From positions 1-38,357 of the forward strand of contig CAZVRG010000006.1 of assembly GCA_964630025.1 (NCBI GenBank): a DNA stretch of 38,357 nucleotides, given 5' to 3'. This document shows positions 7,598 to 20,531 of the stretch, in pieces. Numbering within the stretch: position 1 is the stretch's first letter; every line of letters begins with the position of its first letter. Origin of the DNA: an uncultured Candidatus Saccharibacteria bacterium. Its GTDB lineage: Bacteria > Patescibacteriota > Andersenbacteria > UBA10190 > CAIZMI01. Under the pieces are notes generated by a model. The model worked only from the letters and a program-made list of their open reading frames with translations. It did no database searches and was not told where the DNA came from. Both the position numbers and the translations under genes were made by a program.

Positions 7598-7966
7598 TTA
7601 CCCCGCGTGCGCGAGACAGGTGCGGGCAGACGGCAATGCCTCTAAACGTTTTTTCTCGATCGGCGCACCACACGCGGTGCACACGCCATACGAGCCGTCC
7701 GCGACACGTTGCAGGGCAGTCGTCACATCGCGGAGTTGTACTTCCAAACTCTGTTCAACACTGCGCGCAGATTCATACTGCTCCTCTTCCACGACATTAT
7801 CCTCGGGCATTCTGCCAATCTCTTCGACACGCGCTGTATAATCGCCAGGCGTTGTCCCTTTATCAGCGATCCGCGACAACTCTTGCTCGAGTCGCGCTTT
7901 CTCTTCCTCCAATTTTTTCTTTTGTGCGTCAATAAATGCGGCGTCGGGTGCGTTTGGTGATGTCAT
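7598..7966 (-). CDS. TraR/DksA C4-type zinc-finger protein
   Basis: Coiled coil followed by ALQRVADGSYGVCTACGAPIEKKRLEALPSARTC; the fourth ligand appears to be His. Confidence 0.88.
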   Translation of the reverse strand: MTSPNAPDAAFIDAQKKKLEEEKARLEQELSRIADKGTTPGDYTARVEEIGRMPEDNVVEEEQYESARSVEQSLEVQLRDVTTALQRVADGSYGVCTACGAPIEKKRLEALPSARTCLAHAG

Positions 7967-7977
7967 ACCCGTAGTGT

Positions 7978-8028
7978 ACCCCGTTAGAAACCGGGAGTAA
8001 AAGCACTGTGACAAAGTTTCTCACGGGG
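7978..8028. mobile_element. Palindromic element copy 1 (51 bp)
   Basis: ACCCCGTTAGAAAC...GTTTCTCACGGGG with tgt on both sides. Confidence 0.75.
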
Positions 8029-8053
8029 TGTAGCGGATGAAAAAATTTTAGCC

Positions 8054-8109
8054 AAAGGAAAAGCCCCTCAGTCGGGCCATAGAAGTAACTAAGTGCCCCG
8101 AGGGGCTTT
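8054..8109 (-). terminator. Probable intrinsic terminator of the 8490-8055 unit
   Basis: Perfect 10-bp arms aaagcccctc (8060-8069) and gaggggcttt (8100-8109); the minus strand ends in TTTTCCTTT. Confidence 0.6.
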
Positions 8110-8490
8110 AAGACATGTGATCGCGGACGCGGCCCGTACTTTCTCGGAACGATCTTTTGGATCCTTCAGAGGAAGTACGGGTGGCATCACTTCGTCGATC
8201 ATATGTCGGTTCTTAACCTCCAAGTGGCTGAAGATTAAGGGTGTGCCTCCACTCGTCGGGTGAGAGAAGGTGTCAAACGCTGCCGGAAACGCCTTCATCA
8301 CCATGATTTCGGTGTCCAATGAGCAACTTGTTTGGTGCGTGTGGGTGTGGGTGTCATTGGGACGCCACTGTCCGCGTCAGAATAGAAGCACCGTTCGAGT
8401 ACTGATAGGGGGAAATCAGTACTCGAGCGGCACTCCCGCCTCCAAGCCCCTCGCGCACGATCCAAACACTGTGAAAGAAAACGCTAACAA
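8055..8490 (-). ncRNA. Candidate structured non-coding RNA or regulatory leader, family unknown
   Basis: Near-consensus promoter upstream, terminator downstream, at least five long stems in between, no convincing ORF; strand taken from the promoter. Confidence 0.5.
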
Positions 8491-8495
8491 AGGGA

Positions 8496-8524
8496 AGTAT
8501 AGCAGTTCTGAACCCACTCGTCAA
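8496..8524 (-). promoter_or_regulatory. Sigma70-type promoter
   Basis: TTGACG-N17-TATACT on the minus strand. Confidence 0.8.
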
Positions 8525-8655
8525 TTTTCCAGCACGATGAAGAAGGATTTCCGCTGCAGAAAGCCAAATCTTTTTTCCTCTCCAGGGAGACGTGTACGAG
8601 ATGCGCGTGCTACGCGGAAGTTTTCCACACGCCCCTGCGGGGGCAGCGTTCGCGA

Positions 8656-10068
8656 TTAGGGAATATTCCCGCGGTTTCCTGTAGGCGCCCATTCAATGTT
8701 CGCAGAAAACTGCACACCACGCGCGTCGGGAGCAACCTCAACCGTCAGCTGCCCGAGCGCCTCTGCCCATGTACGAAGCGCGGGCGCGGCGCCGCGCAGA
8801 GCAAACTGGACAATCGGGATATGGCGCCCCACGGCTCCATCCACAAAGAATCGCTGGGCGGAATCTTGGATATCGTCCGAACGAAGCGATACGCCCACCA
8901 AGAGCAGCGGGTCCAGTGCATTTCCAACAAGGACAAACTGGTCCCGAAATGCGGCAAAGAGATCACTGTGCCCGGGCGCTCCGGATGCCCGCAGTATCCT
9001 CCAACCATCGCGATACGTTTCTTCGATACCATCCGGAGATGCGGCTGGAGACGACGGTTGCTGCGGACGAACATGCCGAATGCTGCGTCCATTCGCGCGA
9101 ACCGTTTCTCCTGTGGCGTGTGTCATCGCGAAACGACGCGAAAGGAGTTTTCGTATTGCATCTTCAACAGTGGAGTGCGTATGTTCGTCGACAGTCACGC
9201 CGCCGGTGACGGCAATCTGTCCATCCGGCTGCGCATGAACAACAAGCAGCGACGGATTGCCATCAAGAAGCTCCGTCAGCGCTCGCAATTCCGATGCAAC
9301 GCCCGTCTCTGCGCGCACTGCCTCCAGTAATGGAGGAAGTTCGGAGGGAAAGAGGGCGGACATCGGCACGCCGTCGACAATCACCACGGCATGTTCTGGT
9401 CGCCGCAAGAGCAAACGACCACCGACGGCGGTGGCGGATGTCGCCAGAGGAAGGCGTCCCGCGATGTGCAGACGCTGTCCATCTCCCCGAACAGTGAGTG
9501 CAACAAAAGTGTTCAGGCCGCGCGGCGGTACAAGGAGAGGAAATTGTCGGGAAATCCATCGCGGGTGCAACCACACATGGACATCCGTTTCGCCACCGAT
9601 CTGCTGCCGTGACACAAACGGAAGTGCCACCGTATCTGCGGGAGGAGATACAACGCTTTCCGCATGGTCACCAATCACCGTGAGCGAACCGCTGTCGACG
9701 CCAGAAAGACCAAAACGATGCGCAACGGAACGTTCCGCAATCATGACGGTTGTATATACGTTCTCCGCAGTTTCCAGAACAAGAGTTGCGCGTATCGGCA
9801 TGGACGGAGAACGTGCCGCGGCTGGAACATCAAGAACTGTTCGCAAAAAATCGCGGGTGCTGGCATGGTCGCCTGTTGCCGCCGCTCTCTCTGCGGGTTC
9901 AAGCATCACCACACGGACCGTCGGTGGAAGACGGTGCAGAAGTCGAAGAAGTGTCGCATCGGGACTGGTAGCGCGAAGGACAAGAAAGACCAGCGCGAAC
10001 GCTGTGACAATGGCCACAATAATGATGCGCGCATCACCGATGAGCGACCGAAGCATGATGTGCGTCAT
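8656..10068 (-). CDS. Hypothetical membrane-anchored protein (DUF3352-like)
   Basis: N-terminal TM helix; EETYRDGWRIL...LFAAFRDQFVLVGN resembles the neighbouring gene; start uncertain. Confidence 0.65.
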   Translation of the reverse strand: MTHIMLRSLIGDARIIIVAIVTAFALVFLVLRATSPDATLLRLLHRLPPTVRVVMLEPAERAAATGDHASTRDFLRTVLDVPAAARSPSMPIRATLVLETAENVYTTVMIAERSVAHRFGLSGVDSGSLTVIGDHAESVVSPPADTVALPFVSRQQIGGETDVHVWLHPRWISRQFPLLVPPRGLNTFVALTVRGDGQRLHIAGRLPLATSATAVGGRLLLRRPEHAVVIVDGVPMSALFPSELPPLLEAVRAETGVASELRALTELLDGNPSLLVVHAQPDGQIAVTGGVTVDEHTHSTVEDAIRKLLSRRFAMTHATGETVRANGRSIRHVRPQQPSSPAASPDGIEETYRDGWRILRASGAPGHSDLFAAFRDQFVLVGNALDPLLLVGVSLRSDDIQDSAQRFFVDGAVGRHIPIVQFALRGAAPALRTWAEALGQLTVEVAPDARGVQFSANIEWAPTGNRGNIP

Positions 10069-10086
10069 AGAATCTTCGAAGCATAC

Positions 10087-10153
10087 TACCACGTCATGAT
10101 ATTGTCCTCTCGTATCATGCGTGGTACGAAACCGCCGGCGTAAACGCCGGCGG
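10087..10153. other. Two intergenic hairpins
   Basis: taccacg-t-catgata/tatcatg-cgtggta and ccgccggcgt-aa-acgccggcgg. Confidence 0.5.
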
Positions 10154-10175
10154 GTACGAGGTGTGTTCGAGACGC

Positions 10176-11858
10176 TTATAGAGGAAGAACCGGCGCGGGC
10201 GTTGGAGACGCGGGAATATCTGTTGCGGAAGGTGGTGGGGGTTCTCGCAACAGGATTGCGCCTGTGTAGAGTCCATCGTTCACCGGGCGGAGGACAAGAC
10301 CATCGAGAACAGCAGACATGCTGTGGTACGCCGGCGGAAGTTCGTTCTGAAGTGCTGTACTGCCACGGAAGAAAGACCACGCTGATTGATCAACCGTCTC
10401 GGCAAGAACACGAAAAGTTTCCACCGTCGCGAGTGTTGGCACTGCTTCCTGCAGCGCATCAAGCACAGCGTGCATCGCGGATCGCGACGTTGCGATGATA
10501 AGGAGATCGTCTACCACCGCGTAATCGAGCGCCCGCGTCGGGGAGCCAAAGTTCATGTACCGTACCGCCACATCGCGATACGTTGCCTCGGTAAAGGCCG
10601 CATCCGCGAATGCGGAGCCTGTCAGATAGGGGCCAAAGGCGGGACCGGCGGCCTCCAACACCCGCAGAGAAGACTGCGTATCCGTCCCCCCGGGTTTGAG
10701 CGTAAGCAGCGCAACAACATCACGAACGCCTGCAGTGTCCGTTGGCAGCGTGCCCAGAATAGCCGTTCCTTCAAAAGACTGGAGAAGGTTTCCAAACGCG
10801 TCTGAACGTTCTTGCAGCGCCTGCGCAACGGGACGCAACCCGGAAGGAATGCGTTCGGATGTGAGAACGTCGGCAAGACTGCGTAGAGGATATTCCATCG
10901 CCATCATCACGGTGTGCGGCAGTGTAGCGGCAAGACGTATGCCGGTGACGCCAGCGCTTGATGATGCGTTTTGCTGCGCAGAGGAAGGTGCGTCCACGCG
11001 CGCGACAACGCTTGCGCTTCCTCCTTCCCCGCTCGGCACAATGGCCATCACGAGAGACGCGTCGTGCGAAAGCGGATGGGAGAAAAAGGGCTGAAGAAGT
11101 GTTGCGAGTACACCCGGACGCGCCGCCATCAAGATAGGTGGCTGCGCAGGAAGCCCATGGAGAGCGCGCTGAAATGCGCGTTCCCGCCCCCAGGTACTCC
11201 CAGAGAATGCCCGCACGCGCCCAAGATTGGTACTGTCGGTAATCAGCACGCCCTCCGAGACAGATGCGAGGCCCAATGCCGGCGATGCGGAAAGATCGAC
11301 CGTGGGAATGCCACGAACAAGAATGGCAGGAACCGGTTCTGCGGCCGACGGGCCAGGCAGGAGCAGATAGGTGATATCACTGGCGCCGGCAACCTGCCCG
11401 GCCTGGAGCCCGTTCATGGTTGCAAAAAAACCGGGAAGCAGCGTGGACGCTTGGGCGTCTCCGGAACGTACGCTCACGAATGCCTGTGCCTCACTCGGAA
11501 TGCTGTCCGCAACCGTCCCTGATGAGCGGGGGAGAAGCCGTATCGCAACCCACACCCCCACGCCAACAAGGACAACCAGCGGGAGCACAAGGAGAAGCAC
11601 GGGCACGATCCGCCGGCGGGGCCGTGCATCTGCTGGCAATCCAACAACCTGTCGGGGCTGGGCAGTGGACAGCGCCGGTGCCGTACCTGCCGCAGCGGGA
11701 GGAAGCGGTCCGGTTCCCGTGAGCCCGCCGCGTGCGGCATCCGCGAGATCATCCGCCATCGTACGGATTGGCGGCAGACTCCCTCCCTCCGCACGCTGTG
11801 CACGCGGAGGATCGCTCCCGGCGACGGGAGATCGTGACGATGCAGGAACGGCAATCAT
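10176..11858 (-). CDS. Hypothetical single-pass membrane protein (DUF3352-like)
   Basis: IRTMADDL motif, one TM helix, then ATYRDVAVRYMNF...LDYAVVDDLLIIATS; start could be 11906. Confidence 0.75.
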   Translation of the reverse strand: MIAVPASSRSPVAGSDPPRAQRAEGGSLPPIRTMADDLADAARGGLTGTGPLPPAAAGTAPALSTAQPRQVVGLPADARPRRRIVPVLLLVLPLVVLVGVGVWVAIRLLPRSSGTVADSIPSEAQAFVSVRSGDAQASTLLPGFFATMNGLQAGQVAGASDITYLLLPGPSAAEPVPAILVRGIPTVDLSASPALGLASVSEGVLITDSTNLGRVRAFSGSTWGRERAFQRALHGLPAQPPILMAARPGVLATLLQPFFSHPLSHDASLVMAIVPSGEGGSASVVARVDAPSSAQQNASSSAGVTGIRLAATLPHTVMMAMEYPLRSLADVLTSERIPSGLRPVAQALQERSDAFGNLLQSFEGTAILGTLPTDTAGVRDVVALLTLKPGGTDTQSSLRVLEAAGPAFGPYLTGSAFADAAFTEATYRDVAVRYMNFGSPTRALDYAVVDDLLIIATSRSAMHAVLDALQEAVPTLATVETFRVLAETVDQSAWSFFRGSTALQNELPPAYHSMSAVLDGLVLRPVNDGLYTGAILLREPPPPSATDIPASPTPAPVLPL

Positions 11859-11906
11859 GGTGATGTGTGTATGCGAAAATTGCGGACGAACGACGTCCTC
11901 TAGCAT

Positions 11907-11975
11907 ACCCCGTTAGAAACTCTTTTGGAAATGGTATGTACGCCCAAGATGCTCTTGGGAAGGTTTCTAACGGGG
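11907..11975. mobile_element. Palindromic element copy 2 (69 bp)
   Basis: ACCCCGTTAGAAAC...GTTTCTAACGGGG; inner hairpin cccaaga-tgc-tcttggg. Confidence 0.75.
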
Positions 11976-11986
11976 CTACGAAGCTA

Positions 11987-14230
11987 TTATCGGTGTCCCG
12001 AACGGCGGGGGGCGGAACCACGTCCAAGAGACGGTGGGCGACGGCTTCCTCCGCGCCCGAAGGGTTGCACGGGACGATCAAATGCTCCCTGTTCCGTATC
12101 CGCAGAAAACTGTTCAGGGGTGGGAGTACCCTGCGGACGATTCTTCAGCGAGAGGTTGATGCGACCGAGGTGGTCTACTTCTTTCACGACCACATCAAGC
12201 GCATCTCCCAGAGCGACGACATCTTCAATGTTCCGCACAAATCCCTGGCCGAATTCCGAAATATGCACGAGCCCGTCCGTCCCCGGGATCAGTTCCACAA
12301 ATGCGCCGAAGTTCATGAGACGCGTGACACGTGCTGCAGGAAACTCTTCCCCCGCAACAATTTCCCGTGTCAAATTCTTGATCCAGGTTGTCGCTTTTTC
12401 AATACCGGCCGCGTCCGTGCTGGTAATCGACACCTGTCCGTCATCCTCCACAGTAATGTCCGTTCCTGTTTCTTCAATAATTTTGTTGATCACCGTTCCA
12501 CGCGGTCCGATCACGTCGCGAATCTTTTCCGGATTGATACGGAAGGACACGATACGGGGCGCGTAGCGCGAGAGCTCCGCGCGCGGAGACGGAAGCGCTC
12601 GTTCCATGACCCCAAGAATCTGTTCACGCGCCGTACGCGCACCCATGAGCGCTTCTTCGACGAGCGGCCGCGGCAGTCCGGGAATCTTGATATCAACTTG
12701 CAGGGCGGTTACTCCCTGGCGCGTTCCCGCCACTTTGAAATCCATATCGCATCCCTCGTCTTCCATGCCGGCAATATCGGTGAGAAGGACGGGCGCACGT
12801 CCCTGTCCGGTTTCATCCGTCACCAGGCCCATGGCAATGCCTGCCACGTGGCGCGGCACTGGCACGCCGGCATCCATCAAAGCAAGCGACGTCCCGCATG
12901 CGGATCCCATGCTGCTGGATCCGTTGCTGCTCAACACTTCCGAGACCACCATCACCGTATACGGAAACACATCCCGCGAGGGCAGGAGCGGCGCGACTGC
13001 ACGCTCCGCGAGCATGCCGTGCCCGATATCCCGACGACCGGCGCCGCGATTCGGCTTGATCTCTCCGACACTGAACCCCGGCATGTTGTAGAAATGGAAG
13101 AAGTGTTTCTTGGTGTCTTCTTCCGTCATGGTGTCGAGAATCATGATGTCATCAGGCGCGCCAAGCGTTGTGACGGACAGCACTTGCGTTTCCCCGCGCT
13201 GGAACAAAGCGCTTCCGTGCGTGCGCGGTAACACGCCCACTTCCACAGACAGCGGACGAATTTCGTTGGGCTGACGGCCATCCACGCGTTTGCGCTCCTT
13301 CAGAATCCATTCGCGTACAAGGTCCCGATGCATGTCCTGACAGAGCGCGCGGACAGCCGCGGCGCGATCCGCCGTTGTGCCCTGTTCGGTCACCAGATGT
13401 TCGGTCCATTCCTCCACGCGCGCATTGAGCTGTACCTTGGAGCCGCCTGCCTGCAGGAGTGCCGGCAATTCGCGCTGCGCGCTTGCGCGGACAGCCTCTT
13501 CCAGATCGCTGGGAAACTCCACGGTGTGTGGATCCGCCTTTTTCTGACCAACGTCCTTTCGCATTGCTTCAATGAATGCCGCGAGCTCACGCGTCATACG
13601 CATGCCCTGATCAATAGCGGCGAGAAGATCCGCTTCGGCAATCTCTGTGGCTCCTGCCTCAAGCATCACGACATCCGATGCGGTGCCTGCCACGACGAGA
13701 TCGAGCATTGCCTGATCAACTTCTTTCGATGTCGGATTCACCAGCCAGGCGCCGTCTTTGGTCCGTCCAATACGCACTGCGCCGATGGGGCCGTTCCACG
13801 GAATGCGCGATATGGCCAACGCGGCGGAGGCGGCAAGCATTGCCACAATGTCCGCTTCGTGCGCATCGTCATAACTCAACACCGTGGTGACCACCTGGAC
13901 ATCGTCCCGCATGCCCTTCGGAAACAGCGGACGAATGCTCCGGTCAATCAGCCGAGAGGTGATGATGGCAATATCCGTGGGTTTGCCCTCCCGCTTCATA
14001 AACCGGCTGCCCTTAATTTTTCCGGCGGCGTAGAACTTTTCCTCGTACTCGACAAGCAGCGGCATGAAATCCGTGCCGGGACGGGGATTCGCCATCAGAC
14101 AGGCGCCAAGCACCACCGTATCGCCGTAGCGCACGGTGACAGAGGCATCCGCTTGTCCGGCAAGTTTCCCTACCTCAAACGTGAGGGGGCGACCAGCAAG
14201 CTCGGTGCGAAATGTTCGTGAGGATGTCAT
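11987..14230 (-). CDS. pnp: Polyribonucleotide nucleotidyltransferase
   Basis: Two RNase PH domains (RLIDRSIRPLFP, HGSALFQRGETQ, SNGSSSMGS, DMDFKVAGT) plus KH and S1 domains. Confidence 0.98.
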   Translation of the reverse strand: MTSSRTFRTELAGRPLTFEVGKLAGQADASVTVRYGDTVVLGACLMANPRPGTDFMPLLVEYEEKFYAAGKIKGSRFMKREGKPTDIAIITSRLIDRSIRPLFPKGMRDDVQVVTTVLSYDDAHEADIVAMLAASAALAISRIPWNGPIGAVRIGRTKDGAWLVNPTSKEVDQAMLDLVVAGTASDVVMLEAGATEIAEADLLAAIDQGMRMTRELAAFIEAMRKDVGQKKADPHTVEFPSDLEEAVRASAQRELPALLQAGGSKVQLNARVEEWTEHLVTEQGTTADRAAAVRALCQDMHRDLVREWILKERKRVDGRQPNEIRPLSVEVGVLPRTHGSALFQRGETQVLSVTTLGAPDDIMILDTMTEEDTKKHFFHFYNMPGFSVGEIKPNRGAGRRDIGHGMLAERAVAPLLPSRDVFPYTVMVVSEVLSSNGSSSMGSACGTSLALMDAGVPVPRHVAGIAMGLVTDETGQGRAPVLLTDIAGMEDEGCDMDFKVAGTRQGVTALQVDIKIPGLPRPLVEEALMGARTAREQILGVMERALPSPRAELSRYAPRIVSFRINPEKIRDVIGPRGTVINKIIEETGTDITVEDDGQVSITSTDAAGIEKATTWIKNLTREIVAGEEFPAARVTRLMNFGAFVELIPGTDGLVHISEFGQGFVRNIEDVVALGDALDVVVKEVDHLGRINLSLKNRPQGTPTPEQFSADTEQGAFDRPVQPFGRGGSRRPPSLGRGSAPRRSGHR

Positions 14231-14249
14231 AACACTCTAAGAGCGGCAC

Positions 14250-14519
14250 TCACGCATTCAACTTCAGACGTTTCGCAATCTCTGTGTAGCGGTCTGGATC
14301 TTCACGTTCCAAATACGAGAGCAGCCGGCGGCGCTTGCTCACCATGCCGAGCAGCCCCCGGCGAGAATGAAAATCCTTCTTGTGCGACTTCAAATGTTTC
14401 GTCAGCTCGGAAATCCGTTCGGTGAAGATCGCGATCTGGACTTCTGGCGATCCCGTATCCGACTCGTGCAGACGATACTTCGCGATAATCTTCTTTTTGT
14501 CCTCTTCAATCTTACTCAT
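14250..14519 (-). CDS. rpsO: 30S ribosomal protein S15
   Basis: [13 protein letters not shown]...[12 protein letters not shown]; canonical rpsO-pnp order. Confidence 0.98.
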
Positions 14520-14538
14520 GTATGCGCGAACCAGCGTA

Positions 14539-15474
14539 TCACGACCTGCGGTGCGTCGCAAGTTGCGCGGGTGAGGAAGCAAGAAGACCGGTCTCCGCGT
14601 AGGCACGAATGCCGGCACGGATATCGAATGCGGGCACAAACCCGAGAAGCTGCTTGGCGCGGGTCATGTCACATTCTGTGTGCTCTTGATACCGGCCCGC
14701 GTACGGATTCTCGATGTATTCCGGGACACGCTGCGTGCCCAACACCGCATTCAGGAGAGCGACGAGATCATTAAATGCTGTGGCGGTGCCAGAGCCACAG
14801 TTCACAACCGCGCTCGTCCGCGCCTCCGCCGCGAGCATGTTTGCGCGTACGACATCATCCACATAGATGTAGTCACGCTTCTGCTCGCCGAATTTGAACA
14901 GCCGCGGATTGCCTTCGCGCATCTGCTGCGCGAACTGCGTAATCATGGTTGCCCGCTTGCTTTTGTGACCTTCTCGCGGCCCGAAGACATTGGAGTATCG
15001 CAAACCGACCACAGTGACGCCTTGGTGCGCCGCCGCAAAGGCCATGGCGCGTTCATCGAGCGCAAGTTTCGACTCGGCGTATGGGTTCAACGGATGGACG
15101 GGCCCGTCTTCCCGATACGGTGCGGGAACATCGCCGTACACTGCGCACGATGCGGCATAGACGATGCGTGCGCATCCGTGTGCAACGGCGTCCTGAAACA
15201 GTTTGAGAGAGCCGTCAACATTCACCCGAAACATGTTTTCGCGATCAAGATCCGTCGTGTCATTATTCGCCGCTTGATGAAACACCACATCCAGCGTTCC
15301 AAGTTTCTTCCAATCCAACGCCCAAAACTCTCGCGGGAGTACCCGCTCCCGAAGTTCCGGAAGGTCTTGTTCCCCCGTTGTTCCCGTGATCCACACTTCA
15401 TGACCCTGCGCATGGAGATGCAGCGCGAGATTGGACCCAATAAAGCCTGTCCCGCCGGTCACCAAAACGCGCAT
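14539..15474 (-). CDS. NAD-dependent epimerase/dehydratase (ADP-heptose 6-epimerase-like)
   Basis: [49 protein letters not shown]. Confidence 0.88.
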
Positions 15475-15578
15475 GACACGAGTGACAGTAGCGCGCGAGC
15501 GTGCGAGCGTGCAAGCGTGCGAACAATGCCTACGGGACGCACTGTACGAACAGCAGCACACTCGCCATGCGATGAACT

Positions 15579-15596
15579 GCTATCATTCTTGATAGC
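15579..15596. promoter_or_regulatory. 18-bp palindrome (operator-like), copy 1
   Basis: GCTATCA-ttct-TGATAGC. Confidence 0.65.
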
Positions 15597-15599
15597 GAA

Positions 15600-16007
15600 T
15601 CAGCGATCGCCGACGAATGGAAAGCGCTTCATGAATGCCGCCGGCGACCCTATGAGCACGCCTCGGTCCCATCGTGGTTGCGCGTGCGTGCGGCGAGAAG
15701 CTCGGTGACGAAGCGGAAAGAGGCGGCGATAGCCAGGACGCTCGGCATCGAGCCACCGATCTACCCGCCGGATGAGATTCGGGCTGACATGAAGCGCATC
15801 CTGAATCATCCGGTAGCTTTGGCCGCCAAGGAGGCGTGCCGCGATTTCAAGTCGGCGCACAAGCACTGTGCGTTCCGTCTTGGTAAGGAAATACCGAAGA
15901 AGGATGAGGGTATCGGTTCCGCGACGCTTCTCGAAGAGATCACGAAGCAGCGTCAGCGCCCGTTGGTCGGCCGCGAGCGAAATCTCTACTGATCGTCTTC
16001 GTGGCAT
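15600..16007 (-). CDS. TrpR/YerC-like HTH protein
   Basis: FLTKTER..LVRRLEIAARLLGGQSYRMIQDALHVS...IRRV Trp-repressor-family pattern. Confidence 0.8.
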   Translation of the reverse strand: MPRRRSVEISLAADQRALTLLRDLFEKRRGTDTLILLRYFLTKTERTVLVRRLEIAARLLGGQSYRMIQDALHVSPNLIRRVDRWLDAERPGYRRLFPLRHRASRRTHAQPRWDRGVLIGSPAAFMKRFPFVGDR

Positions 16008-16027
16008 TGCTATCATTCATGATAGCA
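16008..16027. promoter_or_regulatory. Palindrome (operator-like), copy 2
   Basis: TGCTATCA-ttca-TGATAGCA directly before the ATG. Confidence 0.65.
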
Positions 16028-16083
16028 GACGCACACAGGAGTGCATTGCAACACTGTCTGGTACGCTCTGGTATGCTAGTGAT

Positions 16084-16983
16084 GTGCCATCACCTGAGGC
16101 GGTATCAAGATCAGCTGATCTCTTCACATTCCCGGAACCGCTCGCGTCGAATCTCGAGGGGTTCGCCGCGCCGTTTTCCAGCTGGTTTTTGTACACCCCC
16201 GCCCGTGCGCTTCTCGACGCGGGTGAAGGCATTGCAAGCCGCTTAGGGAACCGCGTATTTGTGCCCGAAGTCGTCTTTCTCACACATGCACACTATGATC
16301 ACATTGCCGGACTCACGGGATTTCTTCTCGCCCGCACGTCCGCTCGCGGAGACGACGAAAAACCGCTCACCATCTATTATCCGGAAATCGCCGAACGCAA
16401 TTTCGCCAATTTGCGCGGATACGTCGATACGGTCGTACGCAGAAAAACATTTCCGCTCACGTGGAAAGCCGTTGCTATTGGGGAGCGCATTCCGGTGCGT
16501 CATTGGTTCGTCGAACCGTTCGCAACGAAGCACTCCGTGCCCTCCGCCGGATACCGTTTTCTCGAGATGCGACGTCGCTTGCGTCCCGCGTTCCAGGGGA
16601 AGCTCCCGCAAGAAATCATCCAGCTAAAAAAAGAACAGGGTGACGATACGCTCCACGAAGAGTACGCGCACGTCGTTCTTGCCATGACGGGAGACACGGG
16701 CCCGAGCATTGATGGATCACTCTTCACGAATGCCGACGTGCTCGTCCACGAAGCAACATTCCTCAAGCCGGAAGATCGGGAAGGCGATGACCACGCAACG
16801 GCGGAAGATGCATTCATCCTCGCGCGCAATGCGCACGTGAAAACGCTCGTGCTCTATCACATCAGCCAACGGTATTGGCGACGCGACATGCAGCGCGTCA
16901 TTCCCGCGCTGCAAAAAAAGACCGGCTACCAAGGCCGCGTCGTAGTCGTCGCCGGATTCACGCACCCCGACGGGTTTTACTAA
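16084..16983 (+). CDS. rnz: Ribonuclease Z, Thermotoga-like (MBL fold)
   Basis: FSSWFLY, LDAGEG, FLTHAHYDHIAGL, TGDT, HEATF, DHAT, LYHISQRY; GTG start 6 nt after TATGCT. Confidence 0.85.
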   Translation: MPSPEAVSRSADLFTFPEPLASNLEGFAAPFSSWFLYTPARALLDAGEGIASRLGNRVFVPEVVFLTHAHYDHIAGLTGFLLARTSARGDDEKPLTIYYPEIAERNFANLRGYVDTVVRRKTFPLTWKAVAIGERIPVRHWFVEPFATKHSVPSAGYRFLEMRRRLRPAFQGKLPQEIIQLKKEQGDDTLHEEYAHVVLAMTGDTGPSIDGSLFTNADVLVHEATFLKPEDREGDDHATAEDAFILARNAHVKTLVLYHISQRYWRRDMQRVIPALQKKTGYQGRVVVVAGFTHPDGFY

Positions 16984-17273
16984 TTCCTTCCATTCTTCGC
17001 GAGGTTGGAAAGCTTCGTGAGGTTGATCGTGACGGACACAATAATCACCGAGAGGATAAGCGCGTAGAGGAACTTCGCGATGATGCCGCTTGCGGAAGGG
17101 AAATACTCACGGAAAACAGATTGAATGGCGTCATTCCACGCAAGCGCGGCGACCAGCCCGAGCGCGGACGTTGCGAGGGTGAGGAGCTGCGCGGAAATCT
17201 CGCCGGTCAGTCCTTTCACCCAACGGACGACCGGACCAACACGCGCAAAATTTCCGTGTTCTTCAATGGTCAT
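16980..17273 (-). CDS. Small two-TM protein (DUF5654-like)
   Basis: LATSALGLVAALAWNDAIQ...KFLYALILSVI. Confidence 0.8.
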   Translation of the reverse strand: MTIEEHGNFARVGPVVRWVKGLTGEISAQLLTLATSALGLVAALAWNDAIQSVFREYFPSASGIIAKFLYALILSVIIVSVTINLTKLSNLAKNGRN

Positions 17274-17317
17274 ACGCGACACGCATCCTACAGACGATCG
17301 TGAAGAGACACAAGAGC

Positions 17318-20026
17318 TTACGCAGTCGCAAGCGCGGTGCGCTTCGAGGCAGACGTGCCGACCTCTTCAAACGTCACGTCATCACCGCGAAGCACAGCGC
17401 GGATAAACGCACCCTTCGGGAATTGGCCGGACAATAGCGCTGTTGCGAGCGGCGTCTCCAGACGCCGCTGAATTTCCCGCTTGAGCGGGCGCGCCCCAAA
17501 ACTCGGATCAAATCCATCTTGCGCCAAGCGGTTTCGCACATCCGCAGCGATCTCCAGACCAACACCTTGCGCGTGCACGCGACGCACGACATCCGCAAGA
17601 AGGAGATCGGCGATCTTCTGCACGTGCTCTTTCGCGAGCGCGTGGAAGACAACAATCTCATCGAGACGATTCAAGAACTCCGGGCGGAACACGTCTTTCA
17701 AATGCTCGAGAAGGGCCTGCTTTAACTTTTTCCATTCTTCCGGCTCTGGGGTGCCGGCACTGGTCGCTTCATGAATCGCTTTGCTCCCCACGTTACTCGT
17801 CGCAATGAGCACGGTGTTTTTGAAATCCACCGTGCGGCCCTTGCCGTCTGTGAGCCGACCATCGTCGAGAACTTGCAACAGCACGTTCATCACATCGGGA
17901 TGCGCCTTTTCAATTTCATCGAGAAGAATGACCGCGTAGGGACGACGGCGAACGCGTTCTGTCAGTTGCCCGCCTTCTTCGTGCCCCACATACCCCGGCG
18001 GACTGCCGATCAGTCGCGCCACGGCATGCTTTTCCATGTACTCGCTCATATCCATACGCACAAGCGACTCCTCGCTGCCGAACAGCGCTTCCGCAAGCGT
18101 CCGCGCAAGTTCGGTTTTTCCCACGCCCGTCGGCCCAAGGAAAAGAAATGATCCGATCGGCCGCTTGGGGTCTTTGAGTCCTGCCCGTGCGCGGCGCATG
18201 GCCTCCGCAACGGCACGGATTGCTTCATCCTGCGCGACAACGCGCCGATGCAGGATTTCTTCCAACCGCAGCAATCGATCCAGCTCTGTGGGAGTGACGT
18301 GCTCAAGCGGAATGCCCGTCCACTGCGCAACGATCGCGGCAATATCCGCAGCGCCAACGGTGAGTTCGGATGTCCCGCGTTTTGTCTCCCACGATTCGCG
18401 GAGCGTCTGAATCTCCTCTTCCAGCTCTTTGATCTGCGCAGCAAGCGTTTTCACCTTGTCGCTCTTCTTGGCGCGCTGCGCTGCTGTGCGCTCCCGCTTT
18501 ATGCGCTTCAGGTGTTCTTCTTTCTCCGCAAGCGCATCCGGCGCTTTCAGGCCCTGCAAACGCACGCGCGCCGCTGCCTCATCCATCACGTCAATGGCTT
18601 TGTCCGGGAGAAAACGATCCCGCAGGTACTTATCCGTGAGATGCACCGCCGCCTGAATCGCCTCATCGAGAATACGCACCTTGTGGTGTGCTTCGTATTT
18701 ATCGCGAATGCCGCGGAGAATCTCCACGGTGGCATCCGCAGACGGCTCCGCAACAAAGATGGGTTGGAAACGACGCTCCAGCGCCGCGTCTTTCTCGATG
18801 TGCTTGCGATATTCGTTCAGCGTGGTCGCGCCAATCGCCTGCAAATCGCCGCGTGCAAGCGGCGGCTTCAGAATATTGGCGGCATCCATCGCGCCGCTCT
18901 CTCCCGTCGCGCCGGCACCAACGAGAGTATGCAGTTCGTCCAAGAACAGAACGATGTTCTTTTTCGCCTGCTCAATTTCTCCCACAACTTTCTTTAGGCG
19001 TTCCTCAAATTCCCCGCGATACTTTGTGCCGGCGAGCAGCGACGCAAGATCAAGGGCGACCACGCGCTTTCCATGCAACACCTCCGGCACATTGCCGGAC
19101 AGAATGCGGAGCGCAAGTCCTTCGACAATCGCGGTTTTTCCTGTGCCCGGTTCGCCAATCAGCACGGGATTGCTTTTCGTTCGCCGGCTCAAAATCTGCA
19201 CGATGCGTTCGATTTCCTCCGCGCGACCGATCACGGGATCCAGTTTGCCTTCTTTTGCAAGCACCGAGAGATCACGCGAATATAGATCGAGTGTCGGCGT
19301 GGTGCTCTTTTCGGCCACAGGGCCTTCTTTTTTTCCTTTCGGACCAACAAGGGACAAAAGCGCCTGTCGCGCGGCGGTTTCGGTGACACCAAGCTTGCGC
19401 AGCGTCTGCGCGGCAAATCCTTCTCCTTCGAGAAGAAGTCCTACCAACAGGTGCTCCGACCCAATGTAGTCATGCTCCAGATCACGAGAGACATGGAATG
19501 CAAGCTCAATAGCTTGTTTTGCGCGGGGCGAGAGGTCAAGAATCGTCTCCTTTTTCTCCCCGTTCTTCTGCGCGTTCGCGGCGATGTACTGCACCAGATC
19601 GTCCGGTTTGATGTGCAATGCGCGGAGAAGCTTTGCGCCTGCTTCCGGTTCTTCTGCAATGGCGACGAGCAGATCCTCCGTATCAATGGCGGATGCACCG
19701 CGACCGGCGGCATGCTGCGCGGCTTGTTGGAGCACGCGCTTTGCACGCTCCGCAAAAAGCTCGAGAAGATTCACGCCTTCGACATCGACATGCCGTGCAC
19801 CGTTGGTCCGGCGCCGCCGCGGCGCAACCTTTTCGCTTTCCTCCTCATCAAAGAAGGAACCAAACCCGGGAAACGCAGATCGCAGCAACCCAAACGGACT
19901 CCCGAACCCCTCGAGATCCGCTGCGCAGGCATGACAGAGTTGTGTTCGCACTTCCCGCTGACCACCCGAACGAAGCACGGTGACAGCAGCAGGACGAGCG
20001 CGACAGGAATCACAGAGTTTCGGCAT
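17318..20026 (-). CDS. clpC: ATP-dependent Clp protease ATP-binding subunit, ClpC type
   Basis: Clp N repeats, two AAA modules ([16 protein letters not shown]), UVR-like middle coil; extra N-terminal CDSC/CHAC motifs. Confidence 0.93.
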
Positions 20027-20149
20027 ACCCCGTTAGAAACGTATGCGAAAAAGCGTGCGGTACGCTTTTTCGCGAAGCGAAGTGTAAAGCTGGTATTTCA
20101 TGTGGGGAGTGTACTGAAGAGGAATGGAATCATGGTGTTTCTAACGGGG
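20027..20149. mobile_element. Palindromic element copy 3 (123 bp)
   Basis: ACCCCGTTAGAAAC...GTTTCTAACGGGG with cat on both sides; inner 12-bp hairpin gcgaaaaagcgt/acgctttttcgc. Confidence 0.75.
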
Positions 20150-20163
20150 CATGTCGGGCACTA

Positions 20164-20192
20164 GTATTCCTCAAAAAACACTCACAGTCAAG
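20164..20192 (-). promoter_or_regulatory. Putative clpC promoter
   Basis: TTGACT-N17-AATACT on the minus strand. Confidence 0.45.
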
Positions 20193-20200
20193 GAAAATTG

Positions 20201-20310
20201 GTATGCCCGGCTTCATCCGGCTTCGCTGTACTTCGCCGAGACTTCGCCGGCGGCATCCGGCTTAGATGAACAATCACGGCTTCCTCCCGCCCAAGGCGGG
20301 CCGAATCGAA
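20201..20310. repeat. REP-like cluster 3' of tRNA-Leu
   Basis: gtatgcccggcttcatcc, gacttcgccg and cccgcc-caa-ggcggg resemble 202-278. Confidence 0.55.
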
Positions 20311-20395
20311 TGGTGAGGACGGAGGGAGTCGAACCCTCACCCCTTGCGGGACCAGTTCCTAAAACTGGCGCGTATGCCAATTCCGCCACGTCCCC
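20311..20395 (-). tRNA. tRNA-Leu(TAG)
   Basis: GGGGACGTGGCGGAATTGGCATACGCG CCAGT TT TAG GA ACTGG, long variable arm, GTTCGACT, encoded CCA. Confidence 0.96.
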
Positions 20396-20426
20396 CGCAC
20401 GCGTAGTCTCCCTCATGAAGCGGTGC

Positions 20427-20455
20427 TTGACAAGATGTACTCTCTATGATACAAA
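20427..20455 (+). promoter_or_regulatory. Putative sigma70 promoter
   Basis: TTGACA-N17-TACAAA with TG extension. Confidence 0.5.
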
Positions 20456-20531
20456 AACCCCTCCAAAAACGGAGTGCGGATCCTTGGTGGATCCGTATGG
20501 CTCTTTCCCCAATTGAGATTGAGAGGGTTTT

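Follow-up and report, generated by a model that had tools for sequence, protein, structure and literature searches.

The stretch of DNA analysed here (38,357 nucleotides, contig C6, positions 1-38357, from an uncultured Candidatus Saccharibacteria bacterium; hereafter the window) raises the question of what three short sequences with the same inverted ends are, and why each lies next to the start of a gene. An earlier note on the window had described them as a non-autonomous mobile hairpin family that preserves the reading frame, carries hypervariable cargo between fixed ends and could be tolerated inside proteins in the manner of Rickettsia palindromic elements. Here we compare the genome of the window with that of a sister species of the same genus and with relatives in other lineages, and conclude that the three copies are probably gene-less miniatures, akin to MITEs (transposable elements of miniature size with inverted repeats), of an element of about 280 bp that holds one gene, for a GIY-YIG nuclease. 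As we picture it, two features would define the element: terminal inverted repeats of 13-16 bp, in which CCGTTAGA...TCTAACGG is the core, and a target duplication of 4 bp. The full-length form would be about 280 bp long, its sole open reading frame (ORF) coding for a GIY-YIG nuclease of one domain and some 86 aa, and its ends would pair on a single strand to give a hairpin whose loop is the nuclease gene, its remnant or just 3 nt.

Each of the three copies is bounded by the 13-mer CCCCGTTAGAAAC/GTTTCTAACGGGG as an inverted pair, at 7979-8028 (copy 1), 11908-11975 (copy 2) and 20028-20149 (copy 3). The window contains eight matches to CCCCGTTAGAAAC with at most two mismatches, whereas 100 shuffles average 0.56 matches and never exceed 3; six of the eight are the arms of the three pairs, all of them exact except the right arm of copy 1, which has the single mismatch that the earlier note had recorded. 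The arm-to-arm lengths are 50, 68 and 122 bp, and interiors of 24-96 bp leave no room for a transposase. The previously given lengths of 51, 69 and 123 bp are reproduced with the one extra A on the left that those coordinates take in, as are the stop-free translations of the + strand; the minus strand of copies 1 and 3 does contain stops. Pairing of the ends on a single strand, computed for the + strand, has z values of -2.2, -6.9 and -6.2 for copies 1, 2 and 3. Closeness to minus-strand start codons was likewise confirmed, with ATGs at 7964-7966, 11904-11906 and 20024-20026 lying 12, 1 and 1 nt from the respective arms.

The family extends well beyond the window. In the assembly to which the window belongs (72 contigs, 997,074 bases, G+C 56.6%, completeness 96.65%), exact copies of CCCCGTTAGAAAC number 25, copies with a single mismatch 18 and copies with two mismatches 36, and a search for outward-facing 13-mers no more than 400 bp apart returned 27 pairs. 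For two of six solitary arms, relaxed searches offer a possible partner. The sister species is about 71% identical in aligned DNA, with gene order conserved around the window, and the exact 13-mer is restricted to these two among 41 related genomes.

Duplicated flanks, empty sites and reading frame

The flanks were compared in 41 elements, 27 from the genome of the window and 14 from fetched parts of the sister genome, with one sister-species row, in which an outer arm is mis-paired with a nested hairpin, scored as a miss. Direct flanks matched perfectly over 4 bp in 23 elements and at three of four positions in nine more, whereas permuting the right flanks (10,000 trials) yielded a mean of 3.2 and never more than 11 perfect matches. 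The signal is specific to length and orientation: a repeat length of 4 gives 23 matches, lengths of 3 and 5 give one each, and among the 32 elements with non-palindromic flanks 15 are direct and none inverted. At the window copies the flanks read TGTA/TGTA (copy 1, 4/4), CATA/CATG (copy 3, 3/4) and CATA/CTAC (copy 2, 1/4, no duplication). These flanks are as described before, including the lack of a duplication at copy 2, but the repeat unit is 4 bp and not 3.

The sister species provides the empty sites that the earlier note had proposed to look for. At nine of nine sites with conserved synteny (C13, C28, C21:13462, C21:3957, C25, C14 and window copies 1-3) the arms are missing there, and four of these sites align to the base and have just one copy of the duplicated 4-mer: CATG at C13, TATG at C25, TACA within TACACT at copy 1, and at the ATG of copy 3. 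The C13 site is occupied in the sister species by two genes overlapping at one CATG, and the C25 site by one TATG that holds a gene start, the gene being one which we take from its N-terminal motif to be RecR-like; the intergenic regions at C28 and C21:13462 measure only 16 and 23 bp. The counterpart of copy 2 also has no arm, although a base-for-base alignment was not possible. The elements are insertions and not an ancestral promoter motif, and their location differs between two species of one genus. Together with the 4-bp target duplications, the empty sites bear out the suggestion of a non-autonomous mobile hairpin family.

Copies 1 and 3 reveal what happens at the point of insertion. The sister species has TACACT-N6-ATG where the genome of the window has TACA, the element and then TACACT-N6-ATG; copy 1 split a predicted -10 hexamer, and the duplication restored TACACT beside the DksA/TraR-type gene. 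At copy 3, the sister sequence ATACTA-N8-ATG-CCG-AAA-CTC faces a filled site in which the same promoter and ATG lie beyond the element and a second xATG-CCG-AAA-CTC lies on the gene side. Because the ATG is present both beyond the element and gene-side, and is single in the sister species, copy 3 landed on the predicted start codon of the Clp-type gene, where the duplication restored an ATG. These elements lie near gene starts because they inserted at -10 boxes of the TATA/TACA type and at YATG start codons, and not through any property of the ends.

These sites bear directly on a reading in which the 13-mer is a promoter or a regulator-binding motif and its pairs are divergent promoters around ordinary intergenic DNA. 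Such a reading draws on the TATACT, TACACT or YATG found outward of most copies, on a weak -35-like TTnnCA 17 bp upstream of the hexamer in a logo of 43 copies, and on 13 copies in which an ATG 1 nt past the motif opens a long ORF. Yet the -10-like hexamers and ATGs belong to the target rather than the element, the orthologous promoters of the sister species (TACACT-N6-ATG and ATACTA-N8-ATG) lack the motif, the exact 13-mer is absent from all but two of the 41 relatives, and direct 4-bp flanks cannot come from two independent outward sites. On the crude gene map made in this analysis, about six of the 27 pairs lie between divergent genes and about 13 between co-directional ones; the motif also occurs as 29-bp hairpins within ORFs. 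None of the right arms in the window faces a credible gene, that of copy 1 facing no ORF, that of copy 2 the 3' end of a polynucleotide phosphorylase-type gene and that of copy 3 a tRNA-Leu on the other strand. We consider a promoter or regulator-binding motif highly improbable.

Integron attC sites, DNA-uptake sequences, invertible promoters and alternative-sigma promoters were also considered from the sequence and set aside in view of the housekeeping neighbours, copy numbers in the tens and not the thousands, interiors down to 3 nt and direct flanks. As a separate observation on gene starts, many genes of both species begin 6-8 nt past a TAnACT and without a Shine-Dalgarno sequence, which is the layout that leaderless mRNAs would be expected to have; 7966-7978 and 20150-20167 in the window have it too.

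The smallest members of the family are mini-hairpins that consist of an arm, 3 nt and an arm (29 bp), of which the sister species has nine and the genome of the window four or five. Counted with its duplication, a mini-hairpin lengthens the sequence by 33 bp (in one instance by 36 bp). Of 14 such additions 13 are multiples of 3, and two of three reading frames are open on either strand. Two in the sister species lie inside long ORFs whose orthologues in the genome of the window (68.5% and 80.7% identical) are shorter by exactly 11 residues, or 33 nt; one ORF hosting a mini-hairpin is, to judge from its N-terminal motif, presumably topoisomerase-like. Two further mini-hairpins fall within one AAA+ ORF, and another in the C-terminus of the sister-species nuclease ORF. 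The likeness to Rickettsia palindromic elements tolerated in proteins therefore stands for the 29-bp form, which occurs in frame in ORFs, but not for the window copies, which are intergenic. Among long elements, the net length (element plus 4) modulo 3 is distributed as 7/6/9 over 22 in the genome of the window and as 1/3/1 over five from the fetched parts of the sister genome. Because these lengths are spread over all three classes, the three multiples of 3 in the window are chance; the long copies are not frame-preserving, and on the length comparison that the earlier note itself had put forward its claim of frame preservation fails.

Two side observations concern sites of the family. A 198-nt contig end in the genome of the window (C18:1-198), which includes a 91-bp element, is 98% identical to positions 168169-168366 of contig C24 in the sister species, with divergence complete right after the arm and TATGGC; this contig end is either a chimeric assembly at a repeat or the product of a very recent transfer, and an Rfam search of the sister-species region beside the segment returned no RNA family. 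Upstream of a DnaJ-like gene, both genomes (C21:3900-4010 here; C1, reverse complement, 130980-132200 in the sister species) have an extra short J-domain-like ORF fragment, interrupted by a 32-bp hairpin in the genome of the window, and the sister species alone seemingly has a small toxin-antitoxin-like gene pair at this locus, named from the translations.

A GIY-YIG nuclease gene between the same ends

The search for a long copy with an enzyme, which had been suggested as a check, succeeded outside the window. The longest element in the genome, C25:11438-11718 (281 bp), has the same arms and the duplication TATG, and its ORF runs from an ATG 2 nt past the left arm to a TAA inside the right arm, so that the 86 codons fill the space between the ends. 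The product matches the Pfam family GIY-YIG (PF01541; E 1.2e-16, residues 1-71). Among relatives with solved structures, the small UPF0213 proteins 1zg2 and 1ywl rank best, followed by SLX1, and its match to the NCBIfam model of group I intron endonucleases is weak and below the cut-off. A homologue with 77% identity is found in the sister species at a different locus. The gene at C25 is flanked by two halves of one hairpin and not by two whole hairpins, and whole hairpins of 29 bp bearing these arms are found at other places in the genomes. The other GIY-YIG paralogues of the genome were checked for these ends, and none carries them.

The association of ends and gene is not confined to one genus. 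A scan over one genome per species gave 389 relatives of the nuclease, and in 68 of the best 80, to which the relative-based figures refer, the end core NNCCGTTAGA...TCTAACGGNN brackets the ORF, at a modal length of 275-285 bp. Perfect 4-bp direct flanks accompany 34 of these 68 and matches at three of four positions 13 more (permuted mean 9.0, maximum 17), the commonest duplication being TGAA (18). The hosts belong mostly to Patescibacteria lineages, with a few in Omnitrophota, Planctomycetota and others, and the downstream host genes are different at every locus. The same ends thus bracket the nuclease gene across many phyla-level lineages. An ORF of at least 70 aa is retained in 59 of the 68 bracketed loci, and 18 positions, including Y16, R26, H30 and E62, are conserved at 95% or more in 60 nuclease sequences. 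Variants of the ends shift on both arms together by locus, as in the GTTCCAAAT/ATTTGGAAC forms at loci L058, L080 and L100.

Of 65 loci, 35 have a host start codon made where the right arm meets its flank, often from the last A of the arm and the TG of the duplication, and 17 have the stop of an upstream ORF within the left duplication; in 26 of 59 intact loci the nuclease ORF ends on the TGA of the right duplication. Since the junctions form host starts, hold upstream stops and supply the stop of the nuclease, the favoured target seems to be an ATGA at which the stop of one gene overlaps the start of the next, and insertion recreates junctions of this kind. Surviving insertions sit where the duplication rebuilds the signal that was split, whether a -10 element of TATA/TACA type (copy 1), a YATG (copy 3) or, in other lineages, an ATGA overlap.

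The two forms also tend to occur in the same genomes. Among 401 genomes sampled from the phylum, mini-hairpins are present in 11 (9 of 320 genera, with up to 22 per genome), and a nuclease relative, counted at E<=1e-15, in 113. A relative is present in 8 of the 11 genomes with mini-hairpins against 105 of the 390 others (Fisher p 0.0024, or 0.016 without the two focal species, both inflated by kinship), and all four genomes with at least five mini-hairpins have one.

A subfamily with similar interiors (z 7-16) comprises window copy 3, copies on C13, C24, C38 and C66, and two copies of the sister species. Subfamily members and the full-length element share an ATG a few bases (2-5 nt) past one arm and GCTTTTTCGC 4-5 nt before the other, and the inner inverted repeat of the subfamily, GCGAAAAAG.../...CTTTTTCGC, matches the 15-bp inverted repeat inside the full-length element. 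We infer that the subfamily copies may be derivatives of the full-length element by internal deletion. The earlier description of the interiors as unrelated is correct for the window, in that no pair among its three copies ranks among the 14 best of 351 interior comparisons, but not for copy 3 across the genome. Copy 3 is similar to at least six other copies, in the z range just given, and what had been called hypervariable cargo is more plausibly what decay or deletion has left.

Alternatively, the short copies could owe their movement to a transposase of conventional kind, DDE or otherwise, whose gene lies elsewhere or has been lost; the GIY-YIG ORF would then be a passenger, accessory or addiction gene. 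Terminal inverted repeats flanked by 4-bp duplications typify DDE cut-and-paste transposition, and we know of no GIY-YIG enzyme that joins DNA. The sister species has one rve match and one partial Y1_Tnp match. The genome of the window, with its 27 pairs, has no match to PF01609, PF00665 or PF01797, in agreement with the earlier remark that the window lacks a transposase, but these are the only three transposase families that were searched, and near solitary arms (C8:22045-23372, C47:5155-5691 and the end of C26) no candidate ORF for a long transposase-bearing copy was seen. It further speaks against a conventional transposase that in the 68 bracketed loci, over many lineages, the ends enclose the GIY-YIG ORF alone within about 280 bp, that this ORF is mostly intact with its catalytic-type residues conserved, and that the co-variation of both arms by locus fits a linked recogniser. 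We regard a conventional transposase as unlikely.

It could also be supposed that the family is domesticated, its hairpins serving the host as transcript-end or processing signals, in translational coupling or, as has been put forward for Ssn/NTS, in the control of incoming single-stranded DNA, and the nuclease serving that role rather than transposition. Arms that are exact in 25 instances while interiors have diverged would be explained in this way, as would a nuclease that is well conserved and widespread in the phylum sample and the many copies placed precisely between a stop and a start codon, and domestication is what the authors of the work on Ssn nucleases propose for NTS-ssnA-NTS in the part of their report that treats it (PMC11893778). 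The nine sites examined in the genome of the window and both in-ORF sites in the sister species are lineage-specific, however, and insertion therefore went on after the two species separated. Insertions in housekeeping ORFs (one that we take to be topoisomerase-like, and an AAA+ ATPase with two copies) look parasitic. Domestication, to which we give slightly less credence than to a conventional transposase, concerns present use and not origin, and as such is compatible with miniatures of a nuclease-bearing element.

Several small GIY-YIG genes of the genome were noted in other settings. Four lie directly beside tRNA genes (C28:3746-3940, C8:2527-2745, C23:173-397 and C2:6772-6972), with other flanks and without the arms of the family, and the one on C28 is bracketed by the duplicated 5' part of a tRNA-Gln. 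At C12:18056-18253, a small GIY-YIG ORF is enclosed by an 18-bp inverted repeat without mismatch, GACGAAGCAATCTCATCG, of which a third, incomplete copy lies close by; no clear target duplication was seen.

Known systems, a possible mechanism and what weighs against it

The closest known system is that of the Ssn/NTS GIY-YIG single-strand nucleases. SsnA is a single-domain GIY-YIG protein of 94 aa that binds a hairpin repeat on single-stranded DNA and cuts beside the repeat, and its cutting persists with the two halves of the hairpin supplied on different oligonucleotides, according to the sections of the report that deal with its activity (PMC11893778, Chenal et al., Nat Commun 2025). The same sections state that ssn genes are commonly flanked by hairpin repeats, liken NTS-ssnA-NTS to an insertion sequence that may be domesticated, and count Rickettsia among the genomes with more than 300 SRM repeats; the main text uses none of the terms 'target site', 'MITE' and 'Patescibacteria' (PMC11893778). 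The likeness to the element described here lies in the size of the protein (94 and 86 aa), arguably in a gene bracketed by a multicopy hairpin-forming repeat, in mutated SsnA residues Y6, Y17 and E64 that would correspond to Y5, Y16 and E62, and in cutting with split hairpin halves, which is the geometry of a gene in the loop (comparison with the corresponding parts of PMC11893778). The differences are that each side of our gene has half a hairpin, as a terminal inverted repeat, and not a whole one, that 4-bp target duplications and empty sites show insertion, and that the repeats also occur in frame inside ORFs. A GIY-YIG protein is also named among apparently horizontally transferred genes of Patescibacteria in the relevant portion of another study (PMC12455944).

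By analogy with the Ssn nucleases, we think it rather likely that the GIY-YIG protein recognises the paired ends, cuts the element free and opens the target with a 4-nt stagger, leaving the joining to host repair and ligation. The protein would recognise the paired ends as Ssn nucleases do their hairpin repeats on single-stranded DNA. Cuts by the nuclease would release the element and open the target with the 4-nt stagger, and host repair and ligation would fill and seal the gaps; the host is given this last role because a hydrolytic GIY-YIG nuclease cannot itself join DNA.

Several observations weigh against miniatures of a nuclease-driven element. A hydrolytic nuclease by itself leaves strand joining unexplained, and we know of no mechanism in the GIY-YIG family for a 4-nt stagger. 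The interiors of the short copies align with the full-length interior only weakly and locally (best z 3.5), so that descent by internal deletion rests on positional motifs (the ATG, GCTTTTTCGC and similar spacing), and the 25 exact arms beside diverged interiors need continued selection on the ends or some other process. Copy 2 has no duplication, and nine of the 41 elements match at two or fewer of the four flank positions. The published SRM pattern has five matches in the genome against nine in a reversed control, none of them overlapping an arm or within 400 bp of a GIY-YIG gene. In contigs from the one DNA run that holds the window, a possible source of the assembly, the three window copies are bridged unchanged and no joint skips them, although contigs cannot show rare alleles; an excision product, a circle or a filled/empty polymorphism within a population was not seen in this material, and no RNA run is listed for the window. 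The transposase search covered three families, the p-values of the association test overstate because the genomes are related, and one counted element (C18:101-191) is in the contig end that is 98% identical to the sister species and may be chimeric.

Other mobile or repeated elements share single traits with the family. Rickettsia palindromic elements, of about 100-150 bp, are likewise palindromic selfish repeats found in frame in genes and tolerated as an extra peptide, and no mobilising enzyme has to our knowledge been established for them; the in-ORF form described here is shorter, at 29 bp with 4 bp duplicated (11 aa), and the nuclease-bearing element is a candidate for its autonomous partner. 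Correia elements of Neisseria are also small and multicopy, with terminal inverted repeats, a short target duplication and positions beside genes whose promoters or transcripts they may affect. They have a TA duplication and a conserved interior, and we know of no cognate transposase; here, in contrast, 4 bp are duplicated, the interiors have for the most part no relationship to one another, and the enzyme encoded by the partner is a GIY-YIG nuclease and not of DDE type. REP/REPIN-RAYT and IS200/IS605 systems resemble ours in having a small nuclease that recognises a single-stranded hairpin, and palindromes that far outnumber the enzyme gene. Their HUH Y1 enzymes join DNA through a covalent intermediate and make no target duplication, whereas the genome of the window has 4-bp duplications and, as noted, no Y1_Tnp (PF01797) match. 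Homing endonucleases, whether free-standing or encoded in introns (I-TevI and the Seg proteins, for example), are also selfish GIY-YIG nuclease genes, but their DNA-binding domains are separate, they propagate when repair copies them from a filled allele to a single cognate site, and they create neither inverted ends nor target duplications. The family has the traits of MITEs: inverted repeats, a fixed 4-bp duplication, small non-coding copies, a longer candidate partner, and filled and empty sites.

It is possible, although we hold this only tentatively, that the window copies are relics of a new class of prokaryotic transposon, perhaps the smallest autonomous one at about 280 bp, in which an 86-aa nuclease would recognise its own paired ends, make a 4-bp duplication, leave joining to the host, persist in streamlined CPR genomes by settling at sites where the duplication rebuilds signals, and shed 29-bp hairpins that add 11 residues to proteins. 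The literature searched, which covers few subscription journals, yielded no account of a GIY-YIG element that combines inverted ends and target duplications. Insertion sequences are, so far as we know, classed by DDE, DEDD, HUH, serine or tyrosine enzymes, and a further class would be added by a family that has a minimal GIY-YIG nuclease as its only gene and shows clean inverted ends, duplications and empty sites. Such a family would supply the Ssn single-strand nucleases with an evolutionary origin and a testable mechanism of mobility; Ssn-type nucleases and hairpin repeats, with those of Rickettsia and Neisseria perhaps among them, would then stand at the domesticated or decayed end of a transposon superfamily that has gone unrecognised. 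The abundance of small GIY-YIG genes in Patescibacteria would be accounted for, as would the persistence of selfish DNA in 1-Mb genomes where spare DNA is scarce, either by insertion at gene boundaries with rebuilding of signals or as in-frame 33-bp units in proteins. For annotation, the arms yield false ORFs and false 'promoter motifs' and may break assemblies. In practical terms, the family would offer a tiny nuclease and a known DNA hairpin that it probably recognises, the type of pairing that the Ssn work proposes as a tool in the part that discusses applications (PMC11893778).

The three window copies and their host genes

Copy 1 consists of an exact left terminal inverted repeat (7979-7991), a 24-bp interior without an ORF (7992-8015) and a right repeat with one mismatch (8016-8028), located by the 13-mer scan as were the arms of the other copies, between two copies of TGTA at 7975-7978 and 8029-8032. 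The left duplication, TACA when read with the gene, combines with 7973-7974 to form the rebuilt putative -10 hexamer TACACT of the minus-strand host gene (7598-7966), which encodes a 122-aa DksA/TraR-type zinc-finger protein with a 66% identical orthologue in the sister species. The gene starts 6 nt past the rebuilt hexamer, the spacing expected of a leaderless mRNA.

Copy 2 has two exact terminal inverted repeats (11908-11920 and 11963-11975) and a 42-bp interior with an inner 7-bp stem (11921-11962). Its host gene (10176-11906, minus strand), whose ATG is the one 1 nt from the left arm, encodes a 576-aa protein with no Pfam family. Upstream and co-directional is a polynucleotide phosphorylase-type gene with RNase PH, KH and S1 domains (11987-14230, minus strand); copy 2 lies within the 80-bp gap past the stop of this gene, and its right arm faces no gene start.

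The exact terminal inverted repeats of copy 3 (20028-20040 and 20137-20149) enclose a 96-bp interior (20041-20136) of the subfamily type, with the inner hairpin GCGAAAAAGCG/CGCTTTTTCGC at 20045-20073. The gene-side duplication, CATA at 20024-20027 (TATG gene-wise), holds what is now the working ATG of the host gene, a 902-aa Clp-type AAA+ chaperone (17318-20026, minus strand), and the distal duplication, CATG at 20150-20153, contains the stranded original ATG (20150-20152, minus strand). The original -10-like hexamer, ATACTA gene-wise (20162-20167, minus strand; recognised by comparison with the sister species, locus L117), has been cut off from the gene, so that the old promoter and first ATG are now 126 nt upstream, beyond copy 3, where the sister species has an uninterrupted ATACTA-N8-ATG-CCG. 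Further upstream is a tRNA-Leu (20311-20395, minus strand). Because this tRNA overlaps the + strand ORF 20151-20516, that ORF is probably spurious, and the right arm of copy 3 therefore faces no gene. Just inside copy 3 by the left arm, at 20042, one contig of the probable source run has an extra C (depth 5.3 of 11.4).

An Rfam scan of the window returned three tRNAs and nothing else. The 690-bp gap from the DksA-type gene to the next gene has no convincing ORF at 8100-8650; it contains blocks near-identical in the sister species, among them a palindrome around GAGTACTGATTTCCCCCTATCAGTACTC, and may be an unannotated RNA, with no Rfam match at gathering thresholds. Just downstream of the tRNA-Leu, at 20175-20300 on the minus strand, the stretch AGCCGGATGCC...GAAGCCGGGC is by eye close to the leader of the tRNA-linked GIY-YIG genes on C8 and C23 and, having no ORF behind it, may be the remnant of such a tRNA-linked unit.

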